Assembly: GCA_049322315.1 (NCBI GenBank)
Contig: JBMORF010000082.1
Coordinates: forward strand, 128,141 to 192,140
Length of the DNA: 64,000 nucleotides
Direction: 5' to 3'
Source: Thermodesulfobacteriota bacterium
GTDB lineage: Bacteria > Desulfobacterota > Desulfobaccia > Desulfobaccales > 0-14-0-80-60-11
Under the pieces are notes generated by a model. The model did no database searches and was not told the origin of the DNA. It saw only the letters and a program-made list of their open reading frames with translations. Positions 6,660 to 19,409 of this stretch are shown here, in pieces (the stretch's first letter is position 1; each line of letters begins with the position of its first letter). The position numbers were made by a program, and so were the translations under genes.

Positions 6660-6837
6660 TATAATTTTTTCCCTGGCGCAGTTTTTAGGCCGGCAAGGAA
6701 AAATGAAGGAGGAGCAGGATAGCTGGAATGGCCAGGAAAAAGCAGGGAGCAACGCCCCGTCTGTTAATCAGTTAAAAATTATGCTAATCTGGGGTCGGGG
6801 TGTTTTTGCTTCACCCCTGAGATTGCCCGAGGTTTCC

Positions 6838-8577
6838 ATGAGCATTCGCACTCATTTAATCCTGGCCTTTTTAGGGATCATTCTGCTGCTGGCTTTGGGC
6901 GGCTTGTTGGTGGCCGACCGGATGGCGGAGAGATCAAAGGCGGATACCATAATCTTTGCCGAAGCCTTGGTTAAAAAAATCGAATCCGCCAATTACCGGC
7001 TGAGTAAACAGGTTTTGACCAAATATGGCGAATTTATTGTCCAGGACAAGGCCGAGATGGTGGCCAGGGAGATCTCCGACTTCCTGGCGGGCCAAAAAAC
7101 TTATGATTATGCCACACTTCGCCAGGATAACCGGCTCCGGGAAACTGCCGTTCAAAATATTTATACCCCGGAAGGCAAGGCCGGTTATACGATTCTTTAT
7201 GATAAAAATGGGGAGAACATCTTTCATCCCGATCGGCAGGTGGAGGGCCAAAATTATAAAAAATGGTCAGATACATACCCGGAAGTGTGGGAGGCCGTGA
7301 AAGCGGCAATTGCTCATAAAAGGTCCACCAGGTACCTAACCTTCTTTGATCAACAAAACCGCGAAAGGAAGCGTTTTGCCGCCACCGTGCAAATCTCCGG
7401 GACCCCATTTGTGGTGGCCGCGGTGGTTAATATCGACGAGTTTTTTTTCCCCACCCAGGAGAAAATCAAGCAGGCCAGCCAGGAAATTCTGGACCAGGCC
7501 AGAAAAACCATTGGGTCCCAAGCGGCGGCGGTGCAGCGAAAATTTGAAATAGTCGGCCTTTTCAGCCTGATAGCCTTATGTCTCCTGGGAGTATTATCCG
7601 GACTCTTCCTGGCTGACCGCCTCTCCCAACCTTTAATGAAACTGGGAGACTATGCCAAGAAATTGCCCCACCAAGACTTTTCATCTCCGCCTGATCCGGA
7701 GTCCCTGATCCCCCGGCGATACTTGAAGTATAACAATGAGGTGGGTTACCTGGCGAAGTCCCTGGATTTTATGGAAGCCGACCTGAGGGAACATATCCGG
7801 GAATTGGTCAAAACCACTGCGGCCAAGGAGAGGATCGAAAGCGAATTGCTCATCGCCCGGGAGATACAGATGAGCATCCTGCCCAAGATTTTTCCTCCCT
7901 TTCCCCACCGCCGGGATTTCGACATCTACGCCCTCATCAAGCCGGCCAAAGAAGTGGGAGGTGATTTCTATGACTTCTTTCTCCTGGATGATCAGCATTT
8001 CTGCTTCGTTATCGGCGACGTCTCCGATAAGGGGGTGCCGGCCTCCCTCTACATGGCGGTGACCAAGACCCTCATCAAAGCCATGGCCCAGCATAGATAC
8101 CTCCCGGGCGAGATTCTTACCCGGGTGAACCGCGAGCTGGTCTCGGGCAATACCACTTCCATGTTTGTCACGGTGTTTCTGGGGACCTTGGACACCCTCA
8201 GCGGTCGGGTGCTCTATGCCAACGGCGGCCACAATCCCCCTTTGATGATCCGGAACCGGGCCGGCGTGGATTTCCTGGCCCCCTTCGGGGATGCCCTGGT
8301 GGGGGGCATGGAAGGTTTATCCTATAAAACCGGAGAACTGTTCCTGGCTCCCGGTGAGGCCCTGTTCCTTTACACCGACGGGGTGACCGAGGCCAGCAAC
8401 CGGGAGGAAGAGCTATTCTCAGAAGAGCGGCTCCTGCAAAGCTTGCAGGATCTGCCTGGGGCCTCTTCCCGGGCAACGATCCAGGCGGTCAAAGCCAGGA
8501 TTGATGAGTTTGTGGCTGGGGCGCCCCAGGCGGATGATATTACCATGTTGATGATCCGTTTTCAGGGCAGGGGCTAA
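6838..8577 (+). CDS. Membrane sensor PP2C/SpoIIE-family serine phosphatase (RsbU-like): TM, periplasmic sensor domain, TM, HAMP, PP2C
   Basis: Track ORF 6703..8577. The likely start is ATG 6838 (MSIRTHLILAFLGIILLLALGG). There is a second TM segment, then a HAMP-like segment, then PP2C motifs GGDFYDF, GDVSDKGVPASLYMAVTKT, LYTDGVTEA and ADDITMLMIRF. Confidence 0.85.
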   Translation: MSIRTHLILAFLGIILLLALGGLLVADRMAERSKADTIIFAEALVKKIESANYRLSKQVLTKYGEFIVQDKAEMVAREISDFLAGQKTYDYATLRQDNRLRETAVQNIYTPEGKAGYTILYDKNGENIFHPDRQVEGQNYKKWSDTYPEVWEAVKAAIAHKRSTRYLTFFDQQNRERKRFAATVQISGTPFVVAAVVNIDEFFFPTQEKIKQASQEILDQARKTIGSQAAAVQRKFEIVGLFSLIALCLLGVLSGLFLADRLSQPLMKLGDYAKKLPHQDFSSPPDPESLIPRRYLKYNNEVGYLAKSLDFMEADLREHIRELVKTTAAKERIESELLIAREIQMSILPKIFPPFPHRRDFDIYALIKPAKEVGGDFYDFFLLDDQHFCFVIGDVSDKGVPASLYMAVTKTLIKAMAQHRYLPGEILTRVNRELVSGNTTSMFVTVFLGTLDTLSGRVLYANGGHNPPLMIRNRAGVDFLAPFGDALVGGMEGLSYKTGELFLAPGEALFLYTDGVTEASNREEELFSEERLLQSLQDLPGASSRATIQAVKARIDEFVAGAPQADDITMLMIRFQGRG

Positions 8578-8610
8578 ACGTGGGCTTTGTTAAAATCTGA
8601 GGGGGGAAAG

Positions 8611-10323
8611 ATGGCCAAGAAGCCGGCAAACCTAGTCTTTGGGGTCGATGAAAATCCGCCTTGGGGGATCACTCTGCTCCAGGGACTGCAGCATGTCTTC
8701 ATCATAACGGTCTACTTTATTTTTCCGGTCATCGTCATCCACGCCTTGGGCGGCACTGACGACCAGGCTGCCACCATGGTCAAGATGTCCATGATCGGCA
8801 TTGGCATCACTACCATATTGCAGGTTCTGCGCAAAGGTCCCATGGGCTCCGGCTACCTTGCCCCCTCAGGCAACGGACCCGCTTACCTATCCGCCACCTT
8901 GCTGGCCGCCAAGTCCGGGGGCCTATCCTTGATCTGCGGGATGACCGTCGTCGCCGGTCTCTTTGAGGTCCTAATCTCCCGCATCGTCAGCCGCCTGCGA
9001 GTCCTGTTTCCGCCGGAAGTCGCCGGACTGGTGGTGACCATGGTGGGCATCGAACTCATCCCCCTGGGCATCGAGCGCTTTTTCGGCCTGGGTCCTGGCG
9101 GGACCGGGATCAGTCGCAACGATTTTCTGGTGGCCCTGATCACCTATGTCTGTATGGTGGGCATCAACACCTGGGGCAAAGGCATGCTGCGCCTCTATCC
9201 CATCCTCATCGGCATGGGGGTAGGCTACCTGAGCGCCTTCTTCTGGGGTATCCTCACTCCCGCCAAACTGAGCAGCATCAGCGCCGCGCCCTGGATCTCC
9301 TTCCCCCGGTTCGCCAGCTTCGGCTGGTCCTTCGATATGGCACTGTTGCTGCCGTTCTTAATTGCCACGCTCTGTTCCACCCTCAAAGACATTGGCGATC
9401 TGACCACCTGCCAAAAAATCAACGACAGCGAGTGGAAGCGCTCCGATATGAAGTCCATCGGCAACGGTATCCTAGCAGATGCTGTGGGTGATATCCTCTC
9501 CGGGGTGATCGGTGGCCTGGGCCAGACCACTTCTTCCAGCAATATCGGTTTCTCTCTGGCTACCGGGGTCACCAGCCGCCGCATCGCCTATGCTATCGGG
9601 GGCCTTCTCTGCTTTCTGGCCTTTTTTCCCAAGTTGGCGCAGTTCTTTGTGATCATGCCCCGGCCGGTCATGGGGGCCATTCTGATCTTTGTGACCAACT
9701 TCATGGTTCTGGCGGGTTTTCAGATCATCACCACCCGGATGCTGGACACCCGGAAGATCTTTGTCATCGGCACCTCTTTTATCTTTGGGATTTCGGTGTT
9801 CCTCTACCCCCAGGCCTATCGCCAGGTCCCCGCTTTAGTGCAACCCATTTTTAGTTCCGCCCTCTCCCTGGCCACCATTAGCGTAGTCATCCTGAATCTT
9901 ATCTTTCGCCTGGGCATTGCCAAACGCCAGGGGCTCACCATCACCCCCGAGGATCGTGATTTTGCTGAGAAACTCACCACCTTTATGCAGAGGCAGGGGG
10001 CGGCCTGGGGCGCCCGGCGGGAGGTGATCCAACTGGCGGAGTCGGCCATGATAGAGTTTATGGAGGCCCTGGTGGGTCTGAAGCTGGCCGGCGGCCCCAT
10101 CGAGGTGGAGGCGAAATTTGACGAGATGAGCCTGGAGGTGAGCTTCCACTATCAGGGACGCCTGCTGGATTTCCATCCCCAGCTCCCCAGCCAGGCCGAC
10201 TTATTGGAGGACGAGGAAGCAGTCTACCGGCTCTCCAGCTTCATCATCAAGAATCATGTAGACCGCATCAAAACCGGGGAAGAGAACGGCCGTTGTTTGG
10301 TGGTTTTTCACTTCGACCATTAA
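8611..10323 (+). CDS. NCS2 (xanthine/uracil/vitamin C permease) family transporter with a roughly 130-aa cytoplasmic C-terminal RsbW-like (degenerate GHKL) domain
   Basis: ATG 8611 is preceded by GAGGGGGG. The N-terminal motif WGITLLQGLQHVF and a multi-TM body are typical of NCS2. The tail (9925..10320) aligns by eye with the adjacent RsbW-like kinase. Confidence 0.75.
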   Translation: MAKKPANLVFGVDENPPWGITLLQGLQHVFIITVYFIFPVIVIHALGGTDDQAATMVKMSMIGIGITTILQVLRKGPMGSGYLAPSGNGPAYLSATLLAAKSGGLSLICGMTVVAGLFEVLISRIVSRLRVLFPPEVAGLVVTMVGIELIPLGIERFFGLGPGGTGISRNDFLVALITYVCMVGINTWGKGMLRLYPILIGMGVGYLSAFFWGILTPAKLSSISAAPWISFPRFASFGWSFDMALLLPFLIATLCSTLKDIGDLTTCQKINDSEWKRSDMKSIGNGILADAVGDILSGVIGGLGQTTSSSNIGFSLATGVTSRRIAYAIGGLLCFLAFFPKLAQFFVIMPRPVMGAILIFVTNFMVLAGFQIITTRMLDTRKIFVIGTSFIFGISVFLYPQAYRQVPALVQPIFSSALSLATISVVILNLIFRLGIAKRQGLTITPEDRDFAEKLTTFMQRQGAAWGARREVIQLAESAMIEFMEALVGLKLAGGPIEVEAKFDEMSLEVSFHYQGRLLDFHPQLPSQADLLEDEEAVYRLSSFIIKNHVDRIKTGEENGRCLVVFHFDH

Positions 10324-10327
10324 AGGA

Positions 10328-10753
10328 TCAGGACACGGCAGCAGGCGGGGTCAGGTCAAAGCAGAAGGTCACCTGGTTGACGCCGGATTCATAGTGATAG
10401 TCGATCTCATCGGCCAGTTGCCGGGCCAAGTGGATTCCCAGCCCCCCGATGGACCGCTGTTCCAAGTCCGGACCCAGATTCGGTGGCCCCTTTTCCAGGA
10501 GATTGAAGCGTCGGCCCCAATCCCGCAAAGACAGGCAAAATCGGTGTTGATCCTCCAGGAAGAAACTTACCTCCACCTCACCCGGCCCCCGGGGGTAGGC
10601 GTAGCGGATAATGTTGGTCAGCAGCTCTTCCAGGACCAATTCGATCTCCCATCTTCGCTCCCGGGGCAGGCCCAATTGCTCCAGTTCCGGCGCCAGAAAA
10701 GACCGGAAGGCCTCCAGAGATTCCATAACTGCCGGTAATCGCAGCCGGTTCAT
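10328..10753 (-). CDS. Anti-sigma-factor-type serine kinase (RsbW/SpoIIAB-like, HATPase_c_2)
   Basis: 141 aa. N-box-like EIELVLEELLTNIIRYAY, G-box SIGGLGIHLARQLADEIDY. Its start overlaps the stop of the STAS gene by 4 nt (10750..10753). Confidence 0.85.
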   Translation of the reverse strand: MNRLRLPAVMESLEAFRSFLAPELEQLGLPRERRWEIELVLEELLTNIIRYAYPRGPGEVEVSFFLEDQHRFCLSLRDWGRRFNLLEKGPPNLGPDLEQRSIGGLGIHLARQLADEIDYHYESGVNQVTFCFDLTPPAAVS

Positions 10754-11088
10754 GGTTTGATCTGCGCGAGGGCTTCATCCAGGGAGGGATACATGGGAAA
10801 CATGCTGTAGATGCCGGCAATATTGAAGACCTTTGCCACCATGCCGGCAATTCTGGAAAATACCAGGCTGCCATCCCTGGCCTTTAATTGTTTGGCCACG
10901 AACAGAATTGTCCTGATGCCGGCACTGCTGATGTAGTCAAGTTCACCCAGATCCACCGCGAAGTATGATTCTCCCGTCTCCAGCCATTTCAGGCATTTCT
11001 GCTCAAACTCAGGAGCGGTCGAGGCATCCAACCGTCCTTTGAGTTTGAAAACCACTACTTCCCCTTGTTTTTCCGTGATCAATTCCAT
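10750..11088 (-). CDS. STAS-domain anti-sigma-factor antagonist (RsbV/SpoIIAA-like)
   Basis: 112 aa. VVVFKLKGRLDASTAPEFEQ...DLGELDYISSAGIRTIL carries the conserved phosphorylatable Ser context (DYISSAG). Confidence 0.9.
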   Translation of the reverse strand: MELITEKQGEVVVFKLKGRLDASTAPEFEQKCLKWLETGESYFAVDLGELDYISSAGIRTILFVAKQLKARDGSLVFSRIAGMVAKVFNIAGIYSMFPMYPSLDEALAQIKP

Positions 11089-11711: not shown

Positions 11712-13901
11712 TCACTCCATGAGCAATGGCGCAATGATGGGGGCGATCATGGACAGAGTGGCCTTGATTTTGGCCACAAAGCCATCGGCATCGCCTTTCA
11801 GAGAACTTTGAAAGGGGTTCTTAGTGGGGAAATCCTTGGACCAGGTTTCCCCGGTCACATAGACATTACCGCGGGTATCCACGGCAATGCCGTTGCCCCA
11901 ATCGTCGTCGCTGCCTCCCAGGAGATAAAAAAATCCTATTTTGCTCCCAGCGGGGAATAATTTGGCCACATAGGCATTCGCGGTATAAATTCCCGGGGAG
12001 CCGGCCACCGGGGAGGAGGACCACCCCGTAATATAGGCTGCGCCAAAACGGTCCAGGGCGATGCCATAACCTTCATCATCATAATTTTCCCCCAGGTAGG
12101 TGGAGTAACTCAGGGTGCTGCCGACTTCATCAAGTTTAGCCGCAAAGGCGTCGGATACTCCTTTCCTGGCCGCCTGAGCCGGATTCTTTAGAGGGAAATC
12201 GGCGGAGTAGGTAGTGCCGGTCACACATGCATTACCGTTATTGTCTACAGCAATGCCGTAACCTGCATCCTCATTGGCCCCTCCCAGGAAAGTGGAATAA
12301 ACCACGGCCCCGATGGCATTAAGCTTGGCCACAAAGGCGTCGCCGGCCCCCGCAAATGTCCCTTGAAGGGCGCCCGCGGTGGTAATGAAATCAGGAGAAG
12401 TGGTCTCTCCGGTCACATAAGCATTGCCATTCTTATCTACCCCAACGCCATAACTCGAGTCATCATTGGAGCCGGTAAAAATAGTGCGATAGATCAGGCC
12501 GCCGACGGGATCAAAACGGGCAATAAAGGCATTATAAAGGGAATAAATATTAAAGGTCTCTCCGGTGACACAGGCAAAGCCGTTTCGGTCCACGGCGATG
12601 GCATAGGCGGCATCTTCATAGTTATCTCCCAAGTAAGTGGAATAAACCAGGCCATTGCCCGCGGCGTTGAGCTTGGTGATAAAGGCGTCAGTGGTACCCT
12701 TGCGGCTGGATTGATAGGGGTTCATGGTAGGGAAGGAACTAGAATCGGTATAACCAGTCACATAGGCATTACCCTCTTCATCCACGGCGATGCCGTAACC
12801 CTCCTCCGAACCCTCTCCCCCCAGGTAGGTGGAGTAGACCAGGGCGTTGCCTGCGGGGTTGAGCTTGGTGACAAAAACCTCAGCAGTCCCTGAAAAATAA
12901 GAATCATAAGCCCCCAGAGTGGGAAAATCGTTGGAGAAGGTGCAGCCGGTGATGTAGGCATTGCCGCTGCTATCCACCGCGATGGCGTTGCCCACATCGT
13001 AAGCGCTTCCCCCCAGATAGGTGGAGTACAGTACTTCTGGATCGATGATCAGGGGGAGTGTTTTATCATAAGAAGTCACCGCAAAGCTGTAACTGGGAGA
13101 GTCCTTTCCCGGGGCCAGTTTGAAGCCCCCCTGCCGGGGTACCCGCACGCCGTTGATCACCTGGTAGATAAAAGGTTTTTTCTGCGCCAGGGAGCCGCCG
13201 TCGGGCAGATGGGCGATCAGGTCTCCTGCCTGGGTGACTTCCAGGCCTTTAATGCCCTGGTACTGAAATTTCACCCGGCCCGGATCAGCCCCGGGTTTGA
13301 CCATGACGTCGTATTCCAGGTGGCGCCCCTTGCCGTAAAATTTCAGATCGATCCCGGGGTAGGCGTCCAGGTAGGCCACCGCTCCATAAGTGGGAATGCC
13401 GGTGCGCCATTTTTTGGGGTCCGCGCCCCGGAGATAGTTGACTTGCCCGGCCTGGAGGCCTACCCCGGAGATCTTCACTCCGGGAGACATGCCCACCGGG
13501 GTCAGGTTAAAGTGCAGCGGCAGGGTATGTGCAGCAGGTATCCGGGCCAAGCGGGCTTCCCTTTGCGCCTTACCCTTCCGGGGGCCGCGGCCCGTAGCCC
13601 CAACCGGGTTAGCTGCCTTAAGCAAGGAAAACTGGAGGCCAGCCGGAGTGAAATAAACGGCCCGGCCCTGGCCTTGGGCATAATATTTGATCCGCCCCTC
13701 CACCTGGCCCCGGTTTTCAACGAAATAAAGGGGGAGGCGGCTGCCAGGCTCTCCGGGGCCGGGCCTTTTAAGCCGTTCCGGCGCCTGGCCGGCTCCGGCC
13801 GGGGCCGGAGTGGGAGTGAAGGATATCATGCCGCCGATGAGGGTCGCCAACAGGCTCCAAAAGATTAACGGTGAACGGGGGAACCGCCTTCCTCCTGCCA
13901 T
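11712..13901 (-). CDS. Secreted SBBP (beta-propeller) repeat protein
   Basis: N-terminal signal-like segment. At least 8 repeats of the pattern YSTYLGG..D.G.GIAVD..GNAYVTG.T.S.DFPT, typical of SBBP repeats. Last gene of the RHS operon. Confidence 0.85.
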   Translation of the reverse strand: MAGGRRFPRSPLIFWSLLATLIGGMISFTPTPAPAGAGQAPERLKRPGPGEPGSRLPLYFVENRGQVEGRIKYYAQGQGRAVYFTPAGLQFSLLKAANPVGATGRGPRKGKAQREARLARIPAAHTLPLHFNLTPVGMSPGVKISGVGLQAGQVNYLRGADPKKWRTGIPTYGAVAYLDAYPGIDLKFYGKGRHLEYDVMVKPGADPGRVKFQYQGIKGLEVTQAGDLIAHLPDGGSLAQKKPFIYQVINGVRVPRQGGFKLAPGKDSPSYSFAVTSYDKTLPLIIDPEVLYSTYLGGSAYDVGNAIAVDSSGNAYITGCTFSNDFPTLGAYDSYFSGTAEVFVTKLNPAGNALVYSTYLGGEGSEEGYGIAVDEEGNAYVTGYTDSSSFPTMNPYQSSRKGTTDAFITKLNAAGNGLVYSTYLGDNYEDAAYAIAVDRNGFACVTGETFNIYSLYNAFIARFDPVGGLIYRTIFTGSNDDSSYGVGVDKNGNAYVTGETTSPDFITTAGALQGTFAGAGDAFVAKLNAIGAVVYSTFLGGANEDAGYGIAVDNNGNACVTGTTYSADFPLKNPAQAARKGVSDAFAAKLDEVGSTLSYSTYLGENYDDEGYGIALDRFGAAYITGWSSSPVAGSPGIYTANAYVAKLFPAGSKIGFFYLLGGSDDDWGNGIAVDTRGNVYVTGETWSKDFPTKNPFQSSLKGDADGFVAKIKATLSMIAPIIAPLLME

Positions 13902-13928
13902 ATTCTCTCCTCTGCGGGGCTGCCCCCT

Positions 13929-14609
13929 TTAGGGCTGGTGTTTCTCCACTCCCGGCTCCGGGTCGGAAGTGTAAATCTTCTCTTGATCTTTCAGAATCTT
14001 GGGATGCGGAGGTCCGGTTGTTTCCTTTTGCTCCTTAGGCGTCCCGGCTGGACTGGCGGTCCCGGCCTTTGCCCCCGCGGCCGCTGTGGTCCGGCGGATA
14101 AAGTCCACCCTGGCTTCCAGTTCCTGGGCCACCTCTTTTTGATACTCGTCTTTTTCCTCCGGGCTGAAGGCCCCCTGATTAAGGAAATTTTGGATCTCCC
14201 CCTGCAGGTCCTCCAGTTCACGGTCCGAACCGGCCAGCCTGATCCTGGTGAGCAGCGCGGGCCAGGCCGGGGCTGCGGGGATGCCGCCCCCGGTGATGGT
14301 CAGCGACTCCTGGACCGGGGCAACCGCGACGGGAGTAGATGAGGCGGCAGAGGCGCTGACCGCTGCCCCGGCCTGGGGAGAAGCCGCAACGCTGGAAGAG
14401 GCCTGCACCTGCTGGGTCAGCCGGTTCCCCACCGCATCATAGGTGTACTGAATGACGGTGCCGTCGCTATACTGCACCTTGATGAGACGGTTGAGGTCGT
14501 CGTAAGTGTATTGGGCGGTGGCGGAAAGAGATTGAGCTGTAAATAGCAAGATGGTAAATAGCACCAACATATATGGTTGCATCAATTTTGTAGGCTTATG
14601 CTTAATCAT
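13929..14609 (-). CDS. Small exported protein with a short YD-repeat segment, an Ala/Ser/Pro-rich linker and a charged C-terminal region; function unknown
   Basis: 226 aa. Signal/TM-like N-terminus (MLVLFTILLFTAQSLSATAQ) followed by YTYDDLNRLIKVQYSDGTVIQYTYDAVGNRLT. It starts 18 nt after the RHS stop, which is the position normally taken by an immunity gene. Confidence 0.6.
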   Translation of the reverse strand: MIKHKPTKLMQPYMLVLFTILLFTAQSLSATAQYTYDDLNRLIKVQYSDGTVIQYTYDAVGNRLTQQVQASSSVAASPQAGAAVSASAASSTPVAVAPVQESLTITGGGIPAAPAWPALLTRIRLAGSDRELEDLQGEIQNFLNQGAFSPEEKDEYQKEVAQELEARVDFIRRTTAAAGAKAGTASPAGTPKEQKETTGPPHPKILKDQEKIYTSDPEPGVEKHQP

Positions 14610-14627
14610 TTTATTTACAACCTCAGA

Positions 14628-17600
14628 TTATTTGGGGCAGACACCTTTCTTTGTTAAGTCTCTAAAGGCATTCAAAAACTCAGGATCGGTATATGCTTGC
14701 AGCAAGTCATCTGCAGCACTAACTACATCTAAAGTTCCCAATAAGTTGTCTATATTTTCAACCCATAAGTTAGGCGAAAGTCTCCCACCTACTAACCCAA
14801 GGCTAAGATCAGCTGCAGTTGCTAGATTTTGCGCAGTATAGCTGTTGGGAAAAGCGAGGTCCGCAACATCATTAAAAAACGATCCTTTACTAGCTGGGTT
14901 TTTTTCAAACAGAGCCGCCCAAAGATTTGTCGCATTTACAGTTACACCATAAGATCCTGTAAAAACTAATGCAGTGCCAGCCACAAGGCCTACTCCAGTT
15001 ACTGCTGTTCCCGTAGCTATAATAGCACCACCAGCAACTGCAAAAGCATTCCCAACAAGACCACCAAAAGATCTGCCAGCCTGCTCCCAATTAACCAAGC
15101 CTACAGGATCTATGTATTCGACCGGATTATTTTTCACAAATGCATATAAATTCTTCCCACCGGTCTCCTTCAGTGGGTCTCTGGTCATCCACCTTCCCAC
15201 TGCTGATGCATAAAAACGATACCCATAATAGGACATTCCGGTCTGGTCATCATAAGGTTTGGTGGAAAACTGCATGAGCTGGCTCAGGCTGCCGCTCTGG
15301 GCCCGGCGGCGGCCGAAGGGGTCGTACTGGTAGGCCGCAGACACTCCCCCGGCGCTGTTTAACACCGCGGAGACATTCCCTTTGCCATCATAAAGATAAG
15401 AGTAATTTGCGCCTTCCTGGTTGAGATGGAGCAGGCCGCCGATGCCGCCGCCTTTATGGTGTCCCCAGGTGTATTCCCGGGTAATATTGTTGTCCGCGTC
15501 CCGCTCCTGCACCAGTAGGGCGCCGTCATAGACATAGCGGCTGTCGGATACCAGACTGCTGTTGCGGTACTTTTTCACCTGTACCAGCATCTCGCCAAGG
15601 TAGTAGTACTCCGTCTTGTTCCAGGCGCCGTCAGCGCCGGTATGGGTGAGGGATTGCAGACGATTTTCGGGATCGTAAAGCGCGGTAAAGGCGTAGCCGT
15701 CCGGGGTGTAGCCCTTTTCCAGGTTGCCGTCCCGGTCGTGGGCAAAGGTCTTGGTTCCGGGGTCGGTGGCGCTGAGGAGTTGGTTGACGTTGTTGTAGGC
15801 ATACTGGACTGCCGCATTCTGGTAGGGAGTAGGAACTACTGGTTCATTGGCGGTTTCCGCGGCCCGGAGATCCTGGGCGTTGAAAGTGTAGGAGTAGCTG
15901 TTAATGAGCACTCCTGCGATATTTTTAGTGGTCATTTGGGTCAGGCGTTGTAAGGCATCATATTGAAAAGTGGTCCTGGCGCCGTTGGGCCGGGTGAGGG
16001 ACCGCACCAGGGGATTGACCCCGGTATAGGTATAGTAGTAGAGGTCGCCGCCGGCGTTAACTGCAGTGAGCCGGTTATACTCGTCATAGGCGTAGGCCGC
16101 GGCCTGGCCCTTTTCCCGGGTCATGGCGATCCTGCGGCCCAGGGCGTCGTATTGATAAGTAATTTTGTCATTGTCCCAGGGACCGTCCACGCTCACCAGC
16201 CGGGAATTGGCGTCATACTCGTAGGTGTAAGTTCCCACAGCATTGCTTGAAGAGAGCAGCCGGTTGTATTTATCATAAGTATAATTAATCCAGGGCAAAG
16301 TGTCTTGGTAGTAATAGGTGTTGTAATAAATCCGGGTGAGATTGTTGTTGGCGTCGTAATTATAATAAGTGGTAATGCCCCGGGCATTCCGTTTGGAGGC
16401 CACCAGACCATAATTGTTATATGTGTATAACTCGTATTCGCCGTCCGCATAGATCTTTTTCACCAGGCGGTCACCGGCGTCATATTTGAAGCGGGTGACA
16501 TTGCCCTTGGGGTCCACCAGTTGGGTGCGGTTGCCGTTGGCGTCATAAGCAAACCGGGTCATGCCGCTGGCGGGATCGGTGACCGCGGTGAGGCGGTTGA
16601 GCTTGTCATAGGTATAAAAGGTGGCCTGGCCCGAACGCTCGGTGACTTGGTCCAGCAGTCTGGGGCAGCAGGTGGAATACTGGAAACTCCTAAATTTGCC
16701 GTCGGGGTAGGTGATCCGGGTCGCCTGGTCCAGGTCGTTATAATCATAGGTCACCGTCAGGCCGGTGGCATCGGTGTAGGTCCGCACCCGGTCCAGGGCG
16801 TCGTAGGTATAGCTCTGCACCCGCTGGGCCGCGCGGGTGCGGTGGCGCCCCTGCCTCACTTCCACCAGCCGGTGGTAGGCATCATAGAGATAATTGGTGA
16901 CGGCGCCCGCCGCATCGGTGCTGGAAATCAGTTGCCCATAATCATTATAAGCGAAGGTGGTGACATTTCCCAGACGGTCGGTAAGGGAGGTGACCTCATG
17001 GGTATTGTTATAGGTCAGTTTTATTTGCCCCAGGTCATCCTGGGTGGAGATGAGATCGACATTATTGCTGGCATAGGTCATATTGGCCGTATAAGATAAG
17101 GAAGCGGTGATGGAAGTAGGCAGACTCATATTATTATAAGTGTAACTTTTATAGCCATGATAATCTGAAACATAAGTACGGTTCCCGTAGCTATCATAAC
17201 CAAAATAATAGCCATCACTTAAGGGTAATCTCTTAGAAGCGATATATCCTTGATAGTTACTAGTTATATAATAATATCTTGTCTTTGGTGTATTAACATT
17301 GCTTGCCTCGTAACTGACATAATTAACGTAATTATTAGGACTGACGTACCAGCCATAAATCAAATTGCCGTCATAATGATACTCTTCCTTATTACCAAAA
17401 GGATCGGTGACGGTAACCCGGAAATCTTCCCACATAGTACCGCCGGGCGCTGGGTAACCGTTACTGCCGTTAGGAATGCCGTCCGCCGGTTCAGTATAGA
17501 TATTCCAGACACCCCGGTCCTTGGCGATGCTGGTCATAAAAATGTCTTGATCATAGGTAAAACTCGCCGCATAGTTCCCCATATCGGTGATTTTAACGAG

Positions 17601-19409
17601 ATTTTTGTTGGCGTCGTAGTCAAAGGCGGCGGTGCGGCCGAAGGGGTCGGTTACCTGGGTTACCAGGTTATTGGCGTTGTAGGTTAAGTTGGTCACCCGC
17701 CCCACGGCGTCGGTGATGGTCGTGAGCCGAACCGCGGCGTCATAGCCGAAAGTCAATTTCAGGCCGTGGGCATCCCGAATCTCCACCAGAAAGGGCTGGA
17801 GCGAGGTGGTCCCCGCAGGGATGTTGAAAGTATAGACCGAATCATCGGGAAATCGCAGCTCATAATGGTACGCCGAGAGCTTATCCAGCCGGTTGAAGAC
17901 CTGGGTGGGGGGCGTAAAGCCGCCGGCGCCGTCCGGAGTAAAGATATCATTCCGGCCATCGCCCATGAAAACGGTAACCGTGCCACCGGTATCTTCCACC
18001 AGGTAACAGCCGTAATTAAAGGCCCACTTGTTACCGAAGGGTTCGTATTGGGCTATGGAGGCTTGGGAATTGTAATTCAGGGTAATTTCCACGCCTGGGC
18101 CGATGGGACTGCGGTACCATAAAGGGGTGTCAGTGACAAAGAAATTAAGATTGATGGGATTTACGGACCATACCGGGGACCCGCAACCCTTTTGCTTATT
18201 ATCCGGTTTTCCCAAATTAGAGGGGGCCCTCGGGACCCCGCAACAGCCGCCATAGAGGTCTGACATCTCCTTGGCCGCCAGTTTCAGGCCCGGGAGGCCA
18301 TGGGGGCCGGCAAAGACCAGGGCGTTGCCGCCCCATTCCCGGGCGAACTCCGCTTCGGTCTGGCGAAAGCGGTTGCCGCTCTGGGGATCGAAGAATTGCA
18401 AGGCGTTCTTTTCCACCGCCTCCAGGACCCAGTAATGGCCGCGGTCGCCTTGGGTCCGCCCGGTCAACTGGACGATGGCCGGCAGGGGAATTTGGCGCAG
18501 TTGGGCAACCGTCAACTTCAGGCCGGTAAGCCGATAGCCTTGGCTGGCGGCCAGTGACTTGAGGTCCCGCATACTGTGGCCCCGGGATGAGGCGGCCACC
18601 AGTTTCTGAAGGTCCCGGGCCTGGGATTTCTGCCCCTTCTTGCGGAGCAAATGGGCCAGGGCCTGGGCGCCGCAGTTAAAGATGGCCAGTTGGTCCCGTT
18701 TTTCCCGGGAGAGCCTCTGAATCCAATGGGCCGCGTAGGTGCGGTCGCGCCAATCTTGGCTGTCCTGTTTGAGCAGCCGGAACTGTTCCTGGGCTGCGGG
18801 GAAATTGCCCTGCAAGGTCTTCAGGTTGGCCAGGCGGGTCCGGGCCTTGTGGACCATAATCCTGGCGCCCTGGTGCTGGCTGTCACGGTTGGCTGCCAGG
18901 ATCCGGTTAAAGCAGTTCCCCGCCTCAGTATAGCGGCCATGATAGAGGGCATCGCAGCCCACGTGCAGAACGGCCTCCGAGGCCCAGGGACTGTCCGGAT
19001 ATTGAGCCACATGCTGCCGGAACATTTCCACCGCTTCCTGGTATTCATGCATATTCCAGGCTTGGATGGCAACCCCGAAGGAGTGATTGACCTCTCTTTC
19101 CCGGGCCTTATTGGCCAGGAAATGCGTAGGATAGAGGGGTCCGCCCAATTGGCCCGCGGCCATCAATTCTTCGGTAGTCGGCGCCCGGGAAAGATTTAAA
19201 GGCTTGACGGAATGGCGGACCTGAGGGAGGTCCTGGGCAGCGGCGCGGCAGTTGAATCCTGTCAGGCTGAAGAGGAAAACAAGATTAACCAGGGCAAGCA
19301 ATCCTGCCCTCAACCAGAAAGGCACTAATTCACTACGTGATGAAAGCCGACTCATTTGCCTGTCTCCCAGCCGATTCATCATCTTTCGGGAAGTCTGTAA
19401 GGACTTCAA
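14628..19409 (-). CDS. Secreted RHS/YD-repeat polymorphic toxin: signal peptide, TPR region, C39-like cysteine peptidase, YD-repeat shell, RHS core (DPVGL), then a 155-aa glycine-zipper C-terminal tip
   Basis: 1593 aa. The start is uncertain (alternative Met codons at aa 10, 11 and 19). C39-like motifs NCGAQALAHLL and GHYWVLEAV...FFDP lie at about 18306..18692. There are dozens of YD repeats. The core ends in RWMTRDPLKETGGKNLYAFVKNNPVEYIDPVGL (DPVGL at 15096..15110). The tip is 14631..15095. Confidence 0.9.
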   Translation of the reverse strand: MKSLQTSRKMMNRLGDRQMSRLSSRSELVPFWLRAGLLALVNLVFLFSLTGFNCRAAAQDLPQVRHSVKPLNLSRAPTTEELMAAGQLGGPLYPTHFLANKAREREVNHSFGVAIQAWNMHEYQEAVEMFRQHVAQYPDSPWASEAVLHVGCDALYHGRYTEAGNCFNRILAANRDSQHQGARIMVHKARTRLANLKTLQGNFPAAQEQFRLLKQDSQDWRDRTYAAHWIQRLSREKRDQLAIFNCGAQALAHLLRKKGQKSQARDLQKLVAASSRGHSMRDLKSLAASQGYRLTGLKLTVAQLRQIPLPAIVQLTGRTQGDRGHYWVLEAVEKNALQFFDPQSGNRFRQTEAEFAREWGGNALVFAGPHGLPGLKLAAKEMSDLYGGCCGVPRAPSNLGKPDNKQKGCGSPVWSVNPINLNFFVTDTPLWYRSPIGPGVEITLNYNSQASIAQYEPFGNKWAFNYGCYLVEDTGGTVTVFMGDGRNDIFTPDGAGGFTPPTQVFNRLDKLSAYHYELRFPDDSVYTFNIPAGTTSLQPFLVEIRDAHGLKLTFGYDAAVRLTTITDAVGRVTNLTYNANNLVTQVTDPFGRTAAFDYDANKNLVKITDMGNYAASFTYDQDIFMTSIAKDRGVWNIYTEPADGIPNGSNGYPAPGGTMWEDFRVTVTDPFGNKEEYHYDGNLIYGWYVSPNNYVNYVSYEASNVNTPKTRYYYITSNYQGYIASKRLPLSDGYYFGYDSYGNRTYVSDYHGYKSYTYNNMSLPTSITASLSYTANMTYASNNVDLISTQDDLGQIKLTYNNTHEVTSLTDRLGNVTTFAYNDYGQLISSTDAAGAVTNYLYDAYHRLVEVRQGRHRTRAAQRVQSYTYDALDRVRTYTDATGLTVTYDYNDLDQATRITYPDGKFRSFQYSTCCPRLLDQVTERSGQATFYTYDKLNRLTAVTDPASGMTRFAYDANGNRTQLVDPKGNVTRFKYDAGDRLVKKIYADGEYELYTYNNYGLVASKRNARGITTYYNYDANNNLTRIYYNTYYYQDTLPWINYTYDKYNRLLSSSNAVGTYTYEYDANSRLVSVDGPWDNDKITYQYDALGRRIAMTREKGQAAAYAYDEYNRLTAVNAGGDLYYYTYTGVNPLVRSLTRPNGARTTFQYDALQRLTQMTTKNIAGVLINSYSYTFNAQDLRAAETANEPVVPTPYQNAAVQYAYNNVNQLLSATDPGTKTFAHDRDGNLEKGYTPDGYAFTALYDPENRLQSLTHTGADGAWNKTEYYYLGEMLVQVKKYRNSSLVSDSRYVYDGALLVQERDADNNITREYTWGHHKGGGIGGLLHLNQEGANYSYLYDGKGNVSAVLNSAGGVSAAYQYDPFGRRRAQSGSLSQLMQFSTKPYDDQTGMSYYGYRFYASAVGRWMTRDPLKETGGKNLYAFVKNNPVEYIDPVGLVNWEQAGRSFGGLVGNAFAVAGGAIIATGTAVTGVGLVAGTALVFTGSYGVTVNATNLWAALFEKNPASKGSFFNDVADLAFPNSYTAQNLATAADLSLGLVGGRLSPNLWVENIDNLLGTLDVVSAADDLLQAYTDPEFLNAFRDLTKKGVCPK

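Follow-up and report, generated by a model that had tools for sequence, protein, structure and literature searches.

The stretch of DNA that was analysed here, which we call the window, comprises 64,000 nucleotides (nt) of a Thermodesulfobacteriota bacterium (GenBank assembly GCA_049322315.1, contig JBMORF010000082.1, positions 128,141 to 192,140 of the forward strand). It contains a set of four genes in which an NCS2/NAT permease carries a C-terminal cytoplasmic tail that is almost certainly a degenerate relative of the RsbW and SpoIIAB kinases, and in which the neighbouring genes encode a phosphatase, a kinase and a STAS protein. The permease lies in an open reading frame (ORF) at 8587..10323 (+), in which a TTG at 8587 gives 578 amino acids (aa) and an ATG at 8611 gives 570 aa. 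The ATG is favoured by the public gene calls and by the N-terminus of the family (MxxKPxxLxYGVD); the 570-aa product is the version on the public record, and no record matched the 578-aa product of the TTG start. The transmembrane (TM) core of the permease (8611..9918, +) has 14 predicted helices and matches Pfam PF00860, and it is followed by the tail (9919..10320, +; aa 437-570), which was assigned to the degenerate GHKL (Bergerat-fold) domains of the RsbW/SpoIIAB type using AlphaFold, Foldseek and hhalign. The original prediction had placed the tail at aa 439-570, and these coordinates were reproduced with the ATG 8611 start. Upstream, 33 nt from the permease gene and on the same strand, lies the gene of a membrane sensor phosphatase of the PP2C type (6838..8577, +), an RsbU-like input, with a Pfam SpoIIE match of 165 bits at aa 429-620 of a 624-aa ORF. 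This ORF opens at 6703, while the start in the public gene call is 6838 (579 aa). The phosphatase consists of an N-terminal TM segment, a Cache-like domain, a second TM/HAMP-like region and then the PP2C/SpoIIE domain; the sCache_2 and dCache_2 matches are weak (at or slightly under the Pfam cut-offs), and the HAMP-like label was read off the sequence with no profile match behind it. On the reverse strand lie the genes of an RsbW-like serine kinase of 141 aa (10328..10753, −; Pfam HATPase_c_2, 90.8 bits) and of a single-domain, RsbV/SpoIIAA-like STAS protein of 112 aa (10750..11088, −; Pfam STAS, 80 bits; TIGR00377 anti-sigma factor antagonist, 78 bits). The permease and kinase genes are convergent with their stop codons 4 nt apart, and the stop codon of the STAS gene overlaps the kinase start by 4 nt. 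The public annotation of the permease is only “uracil-xanthine permease family protein”. The four genes are flanked upstream by radical SAM and CobN genes and downstream by genes for SBBP/DUF7948 and RHS-repeat proteins, and no sigma-factor gene was found among the genes flanking the module.

The relationship of the tail to the RsbW-like kinases is detectable at the profile-profile level only. The window tail itself has no Pfam match at E ≤ 10, no NCBIfam match and no PDB-sequence match, the tail remains under the Pfam gathering threshold for PF13581/PF02518, and a profile search of the tail against the PDB sequences returned only designed helical repeat proteins at E > 0.02. Sub-threshold matches to PF13581 (HATPase_c_2), the sole Pfam family that was matched repeatedly, were found in 17 of the 69 tail-family members (best E 3e-4), and BLASTP aligned the tail with the neighbouring kinase at 26% identity over 78 aa (E = 0.001). 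When a profile of 69 tails was compared with 33 RsbW-like kinases that are encoded beside such permeases, hhalign gave a probability of 97.2% and an E-value of 3.2e-11 over 127 of the 132 columns, and the controls with the same tail profile did not exceed 1.8% (STAS 0.2%, PP2C 1.8%, reversed RsbW profile 0.2%). The AlphaFold2 model of the tail, which was based on a 69-sequence alignment, had a pLDDT of 96.5 and a pTM of 0.89, and the order of its elements, b1-a1-a2-b2-b3-lid-a3-b4-b5, matches that of RsbW. In the Foldseek search against the PDB, the 16 top matches were exclusively SpoIIAB, RsbW or UsfX (E 4e-5 to 4e-4, probability 1.00, TM 0.6-0.8), with SpoIIAB represented by 1tid, 1til, 1th8, 1thn and 1l0o, Bacillus subtilis RsbW by 6m36 and 6m37 and Mycobacterium tuberculosis UsfX by 8ih8 and 8jzt. 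These three proteins, with best matches between E 4e-5 and 7e-4, account for 18 of the 20 matches at E ≤ 1e-3; Rv1364c, SiaB and the CA domains of histidine kinases rank lower. Based on the profile match, the model and the Foldseek ranking, the tail is therefore homologous to the STAS-binding anti-sigma kinases specifically. The likeness to RsbW that had been proposed by eye is thus borne out, as is the GHKL fold, which proved to be of the RsbW/SpoIIAB type both in hhalign and in the Foldseek ranking.

The catalytic motifs were assessed in approximately 277-281 unique tails using the hhalign alignment, which was mapped to B. subtilis RsbW via a phmmer alignment. The catalytic-base Glu49 of RsbW corresponds to Glu482 in the window, and this position is Glu in 195 and Gln in 72 members of the family. 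The N-box Asn53, a ligand of Mg2+-ATP, is replaced by Ala486 (tail position 48), with A, S, T, L, V, I or M across the family and a single Asn among 277 tails. The G1 Asp, which contacts adenine, is replaced by Tyr514 (Y 260, W 11, H 5, C 1 and no Asp in 277), and the first G1 Gly is retained as Gly516 (277 of 278). In place of the G2 motif GGxG, which forms the hinge of the ATP lid, the window tail has Y-R-L-S opposite the GGLG of the neighbouring kinase, and the family pattern is x-R-L-[AS]-G. Judged from these alignments, the canonical Mg-ATP site is lost across the whole tail family and, because the ATP- and Mg2+-binding residues are lost, the tail is to be regarded as a pseudokinase; for its fold and this state taken together our confidence is very high. 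The by-eye alignment behind the original prediction agreed with the profile alignment in its second block, but its first block (helix a2) was off by four residues and its third (a3) by approximately two. In the corrected register the N-box Asn therefore pairs with Ala486 and not with the I/E that had been read there. The absence of the N-box Asn and of the glycine-rich G2 box holds despite the shift; the G1 Asp is lost as well (Tyr514), and the Ser-contacting Glu is kept (Glu482). The description of the tail as a dead copy of the neighbouring kinase can be retained only for the loss of the canonical motifs: the pocket is still conserved, and the tail is an ancient, clade-wide domain that is not the neighbour's copy. 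Indeed, a recent duplication of the kinase was ruled out by the identity of only approximately 21% between the two in the profile alignment and by the spread of the tail over many bacterial phyla and archaea. Because the tail scores under the Pfam threshold and lacks the N-box Asn, the G1 Asp and the G2 glycines, the fitting name should be degenerate RsbW-like domain and not HATPase.

An exhaustive profile search found the tail domain in 731 representative clusters (412 at E ≤ 1e-10), always at the extreme C-terminus of proteins of approximately 565-596 aa that end in HFDH. When the TM core alone was used as the query, 119 of the best 120 homologues, including those of Methanothrix harundinacea and Methanoculleus taiwanensis, were 568-579 aa long and one was a 460-aa fragment; the tail is therefore present in all 119 full-length homologues. 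The tail is thus an old, fixed feature of one distinct NCS2 clade. Genomic loci were collected with a degenerate DNA pattern for WGARx[ED][VI]-30 aa-FDE, which yielded at least 119 loci, every one with a true tail. The loci listed include Alpha-, Beta- and Gammaproteobacteria, Thermodesulfobacteriota/Syntrophia, Bacillota, Chloroflexota, Acidobacteriota, Verrucomicrobiota, Bacteroidales and Binatia as well as the archaeal Methanothrix and Methanomicrobiales. Both Pfam and NCBIfam leave the domain blank, and the proteins are labelled just as xanthine/uracil permeases. The suggestion that the architecture had not been described is in line with this and with a non-exhaustive literature search, which found no paper on an NCS2 permease with an RsbW-like domain. 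Among the same loci, tandem genes for tail-bearing permeases were observed in L006 (4290-7878), L057 (3409-7184), L071 (2903-6526) and L087 (969-4552), and in L006, L071 and L087 they adjoin a single STAS gene. Short tail-only ORFs were also seen in L013 (3584-3946, −), L116 (498-887, +) and L079 (4393-4824, +). Those of L013 and L116 lack a start codon and resemble leftover 3' ends of permease genes, and about a dozen 112-aa tail-only library entries start at the internal Met of the FME motif and are probably fragments; none of these was accepted as a stand-alone tail protein.

The gene neighbourhood was analysed in the 119 listed loci with iterative phmmer/hmmsearch profiles that were seeded with the STAS protein, kinase and phosphatase of the window. 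A STAS gene was present within 2.5 kb of the permease in 48 loci, a co-occurrence that the original prediction had raised as a question, and within 150 nt in 35. The share was 20 of 37 where at least 1.5 kb of both flanks was available and 11 of 17 where both flanks reached at least 2.5 kb. The density of STAS genes was 0.385 per kb within 500 bp of the permease vs 0.018 per kb at a distance of 4-8 kb, i.e., an enrichment of approximately 20-fold. RsbW-like genes were found in 32 loci and PP2C genes in 34, and homologues of the PP2C domain and of the N-terminal sensor part of the phosphatase stand beside tail-bearing permeases in 32-37. All three genes occur together in 14 loci. Using independent gene calls with Pfam labels, a complete cassette was seen in M. 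harundinacea (L121, CP003117, 3707-7707), where it comprises STAS, 5TMR_LYT-SpoIIE, HATPase_c_2 and the permease, in M. taiwanensis (L123, 6001-9972) and on a third contig of 1.86 Mb (L125, 6771-8949). The sensor part of the phosphatase varies, with Cache/HAMP in the window vs 5TMR-LYT in the methanogens, as expected of a modular input. To our knowledge, archaea have no bacterial sigma factors; the partner-switching genes of the methanogens therefore need another target, and the permease is the obvious output of their cassette. The module genes thus lie beside tail-bearing permeases far more often than by chance, also in organisms without sigma factors.

Another 11 of the listed loci have STAS and PP2C genes and no separate RsbW gene, and Pfam scans of the neighbouring ORFs in L030, L038, L045, L086 and L111 found no overlooked one; the tail is therefore the only RsbW-like domain present there. 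These cassettes, which have a phosphatase and its substrate and no other kinase nearby, are what might be expected if the tail were an active kinase that phosphorylates the STAS protein with other nucleotide-binding residues, e.g., with Glu485 in place of the N-box Asn. The catalytic-base Glu482 is retained, and it is Glu in all 10 tails from loci that were scored as STAS plus PP2C without a separate RsbW gene anywhere in the stretch analysed, compared with 71% overall; this sample, however, is small, its members are not phylogenetically independent, and p is approximately 0.03 without correction. Moreover, the whole family has lost the Asn that binds Mg2+, the Asp that binds adenine and the glycine-rich lid of G2, and the catalytic base is replaced by Gln in a quarter of the tails, which leaves an active tail kinase a most improbable explanation.

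The soluble kinase of the window has all of its motifs intact (catalytic Glu43, N-box Asn47, G1 D-W-G and G2 GGLG), and its sequence matches B. subtilis RsbW in the PDB with an E-value of 2e-7 and also SpoIIAB; its matches to the NCBIfam RsbW models are weak. The phospho-acceptor of the STAS protein is Ser55 in the motif Y-I-S-S-A-G. Among 34 STAS proteins that are encoded beside tail-bearing permeases, Ser55 is invariant and Asp21 and Tyr52 are near-invariant; they correspond to Ser56, Asp23 and Tyr53 of RsbV, and the STAS proteins that share them make up one coherent group. With a STAS protein that has a phosphorylatable Ser, an intact kinase and a PP2C phosphatase, the gene set is, as far as sequence can tell, a partner-switching one, and its target, from homology and linkage, would be the permease tail. 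In the soluble kinases, the equivalent of RsbW Asp42 is acidic or neutral opposite an Arg/Lys of the STAS protein at the RsbV Arg87 site and basic or neutral opposite a Glu (for example, L098, L047, L018 and L115 vs L051, L053, L078, L061, L017, L025 and L109). This charge swap is consistent with a canonical kinase-STAS interface. The residues of RsbW that form hydrogen bonds with RsbV are Arg23, Asp42, Lys44/Ser48, Glu49 and Tyr118, of which Glu49 contacts the phospho-acceptor Ser, and RsbW dimerises through b1 and a1 (PMC7340262). The original prediction suggested that the partner-binding surface may be retained; in the tail family, two of these six contact positions still have the same kind of residue, Glu49 as E/Q in 96% and Tyr118 as F/Y in 78%. 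A correlation between Glu/Gln482 of the tail and the STAS residue at that site probably reflects a single clade split and was not counted as evidence.

With moderate confidence, we read the four genes as a self-contained partner-switching module with the transporter as its output, in which the tail serves as a pseudokinase docking site for the STAS protein. We infer STAS-tail binding, tail dimerisation and an effect on transport as well as the kind of substrate, which is considered below. The membrane PP2C phosphatase would sense a signal via its extracytoplasmic domain and dephosphorylate the STAS protein, which the soluble RsbW-like kinase would re-phosphorylate on Ser55. In its unphosphorylated form, the STAS protein would dock on the tail as RsbV does on RsbW and, as the tail would be unable to phosphorylate it, the complex would last and the activity of the transporter would be altered. 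In NCS2 and SLC26 transporters alike, the dimer is formed by the gate domains, TM14 included. Given this arrangement and the b1/a1 dimer of RsbW, two tails could therefore form an RsbW-like dimer beneath the transporter. Such tails, which would probably pair through b1/a1 under the dimeric permease, would then make a platform on the cytoplasmic side, comparable to the dimer of STAS domains behind TM14 in SLC26/SulP. In favour of docking also count the loci in which the tail is the only RsbW-like domain, the retained equivalents of Glu49 and Tyr118, the invariant Ser of the neighbouring STAS proteins and the start of the tail right behind TM14. The docking model explains the gene linkage, the likeness to the STAS-binding kinases and the loss of the motifs, each of which one or other of the rival explanations accounts for less well.

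Several observations weigh against docking. Four of the six RsbV-contact positions are not kept in kind in the tails: the Asp42-equivalent is Arg/Lys in 81% (Leu in the window), and the other three are variable. Moreover, the tail has Arg/Lys at the Asp42-equivalent (again with the exception of the Leu in the window) whatever the STAS residue, and the charge pattern of the soluble kinases is not evident there. In approximately 35-45% of the loci with sufficient flanks, none of the STAS, RsbW and PP2C genes could be detected nearby. Within 5 kb of a relative of the window permease with 74% identity (L124, 5001-6713), no gene for STAS, PP2C or HATPase_c_2 was present; either that genome encodes the partners at another site or the permease can do without them. 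The former nucleotide pocket is also kept (Glu482 as E/Q in 96%, Glu485 as E/D in 92%, Tyr514 in 94%, Gly516 in 100% and Pro526 in 89%), which could point to a ligand instead of, or besides, a protein partner. Finally, the strongest conservation of the tail should lie at its membrane-facing end, off the a1-a3 face by which RsbW binds RsbV. The near-invariant residues are F458, G463, W466-G467-A468-R469, V472, E482, E485, F503-D504-E505, Y514, G516, P526, D551, F568 and H570, and the family-specific motifs are WGAR (466-469), FDE (503-505), Y-x-G (514-516), D551 and HFDH (567-570). By the order of strands and helices, WGAR, FDE, D551 and HFDH should sit where the chain coming from TM14 enters the domain, and this cluster would then face the cytoplasmic side of the transport domain.

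The conserved pocket would suit a tail that acts as a ligand sensor, in which the remodelled GHKL pocket would bind a nucleotide, a nucleobase or another metabolite and gate the transporter allosterically, and the neighbouring genes would be co-regulated without any contact with the tail. The conservation of E482, E485, Y514, G516 and P526 despite the loss of the canonical motifs and the approximately 40% of family members without partner-switching genes nearby both speak for it. However, the Mg2+- and adenine-binding residues are absent, and STAS genes are enriched 20-fold beside the permease across phyla and domains of life. As the proteins nearest to the tail in structure are STAS-binding kinases, co-regulation alone can hardly explain this linkage, and we consider such a sensor unlikely. 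The position of the tail directly after TM14, the membrane-proximal location of its most conserved residues and the many members without partner-switching neighbours would also suit a purely structural role, i.e., that the tail just stabilises or dimerises the transporter and that its likeness to RsbW is a relic without signalling. This leaves unexplained the cross-domain linkage with STAS, PP2C and RsbW genes as well as the retained Ser-contacting Glu and the aromatic equivalent of Tyr118, and it appears very unlikely.

It is also conceivable that the direction of signalling is the opposite one and that the transporter is the input. As a transceptor, it would relay the flux to a target encoded elsewhere, with its tail binding the STAS protein or pairing with the soluble kinase according to the transport state. 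Both elements of the b1/a1 dimer of RsbW (PMC7340262) are kept in the tail, which makes a tail-kinase heterodimer conceivable, and no output gene besides the permease is visible in the module. However, the phosphatases have sensor domains of their own (Cache in the window, 5TMR-LYT in the methanogens), so an input already exists; there is no sigma factor as a downstream target in archaea, and loci with STAS and PP2C genes and without a soluble kinase exist. A transceptor therefore seems quite unlikely.

Among transporters, a close comparison is with SLC26/SulP, which has the same 7+7 inverted-repeat fold as NCS2. In both, a cytoplasmic regulatory domain follows right after TM14 and there is a link to STAS/anti-sigma antagonists. 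In SLC26/SulP, the STAS domain itself is fused to the transporter, whereas here its RsbW-like partner is fused and the STAS protein is separate and phosphorylatable. Additionally, SulP proteins have a Sulfate_transp core, whereas the window permease has no Sulfate_transp match in Pfam and its core is PF00860, and hhalign gave the tail only 0.2% against the STAS profile. It is possible, though speculative, that the tail and the separate STAS protein rebuild the STAS platform of SLC26/SulP non-covalently and under the control of phosphorylation on a sister 7+7 family. If this were true, it would provide a mechanistic and evolutionary bridge between both halves of the name STAS (Sulfate Transporter/Anti-Sigma antagonist), partner switching would be an ancient means of gating solute carriers, also in archaea without any history of sigma factors, and the module would be a tractable system for the control of a 7+7 transporter by STAS. 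For the question of what the STAS domain does in SLC26 transporters, the tail also offers a natural point of comparison.

The free RsbW, SpoIIAB and UsfX proteins resemble the tail in fold, in the order of the elements and in the Ser-contacting Glu, and the gene of the tail adjoins their STAS and PP2C partners. They differ in that they are free proteins of 140-160 aa, whereas the tail is fused to a 14-TM transporter, has its own WGAR/FDE/HFDH motifs and involves no sigma factor. M. tuberculosis UsfX reportedly binds its antagonists without phosphorylating them, which, if so, would be a precedent for a non-kinase function. Partner switches with outputs other than sigma factors are known as well: SiaABCD in Pseudomonas, SypA/SypE in Vibrio, BtrUVW in Bordetella and HsbA. 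They share with the module a PP2C phosphatase, an RsbW-like kinase and a STAS-type protein, and SiaB (6kko) is among the structural matches of the tail. In a literature search that was not exhaustive, we found no partner switch with a transporter as its target or with a target that bears a pseudokinase copy of its own kinase. In the MlaB-MlaF system, a single-domain STAS protein acts on an ABC transporter (PMC7367683). MlaB, however, binds an ABC ATPase and not a GHKL domain, there is no kinase/phosphatase pair, and the class of transporter differs from NCS2. In M. tuberculosis Rv1364c, a fusion of RsbU, RsbW and RsbV and a structural match of the tail (3ke6), the RsbW-type domain is likewise part of a multidomain protein; this protein, however, is soluble and includes no transporter, and its RsbW domain is joined to its own partners, whereas the tail is joined to a transporter. 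A similar fusion may occur among the loci studied here, as PP2C and RsbW-like matches fall within one long stop-to-stop ORF in L011 (1527-4175), L015 (5437-7791), L040 (1796-4258) and L104 (1088-3601), which suggests a single fused PP2C-RsbW protein that is reminiscent of Rv1364c. Partner-switching modules are known almost wholly as regulators of sigma factors, with few enzyme targets; if the docking reading is true, the control of membrane transport joins their outputs, and it would explain why methanogenic archaea encode RsbU-, RsbV- and RsbW-like genes. The analysis also provides an annotation for a conserved 130-aa domain that is blank in the databases and that occurs in proteins labelled “xanthine permease”.

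The core of the permease belongs to the NCS2 family. PF00860 (Xan_ur_permease), its sole Pfam match, covers aa 29-408 with 203 bits vs a cut-off of 27, and NF037981 NCS2_1 gave 80.9 bits vs a cut-off of 40. TIGR03173 pbuX gave 271 bits, which is under its cut-off of 414, and the xanthine and uracil equivalog models were below their cut-offs. The best matches among the PDB sequences were UraA, SVCT1 and UapA. In the full-length AlphaFold model (pLDDT 90.3, pTM 0.82), TM14 ends at aa 433 and b1 of the tail starts at aa 438, so that the tail begins 4 residues past TM14. The carboxylates of TM8 and TM10 that bind the substrate in UraA are not kept in the window permease. The equivalent of UraA Glu241 in TM8, which is also the Glu of IESIGD in SVCT1, is Lys259 (9385-9387), and that of UraA Glu290 in TM10 is Ser310 (9538-9540), a position with S/A/G/T/P across the family. 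Across 143 tail-bearing permeases, the residues listed for the TM8 site (138 of the 143) are K 86, R 13, D 27, S 5, N 4, I 1, Q 1 and H 1, and Glu does not occur in this list. The tail-bearing permeases are probably not ordinary xanthine/uracil transporters, as most have Lys or Arg in place of the substrate-binding Glu of TM8. The clade may thus not carry xanthine or uracil as annotated, and the basic residue in TM8 hints at an anionic or otherwise different substrate. Two further motifs of the core are near-invariant in the clade: QKINDSEWKRSD at aa 268-279 (9412-9447 of the window; Q268, W275 and R277) and RMLDTR at aa 376-381 (9736-9753; R376, D379 and R381). Neither was seen in the UraA alignment, and the topology of UraA puts both in cytoplasmic loops (TM8-9 and TM12-13). 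Both motifs are candidates for contact with the end of the tail that carries WGAR, FDE and HFDH.

Directly downstream of the module, the region at 11712-19409 (−) encodes a 729-aa SBBP beta-propeller/DUF7948 protein, a small RHS-repeat protein and a protein of approximately 1,590 aa. The last of these carries Peptidase_C39 and RHS/YD-shell repeats, and this region is a toxin-like polymorphic system that is unrelated to the permease tail.

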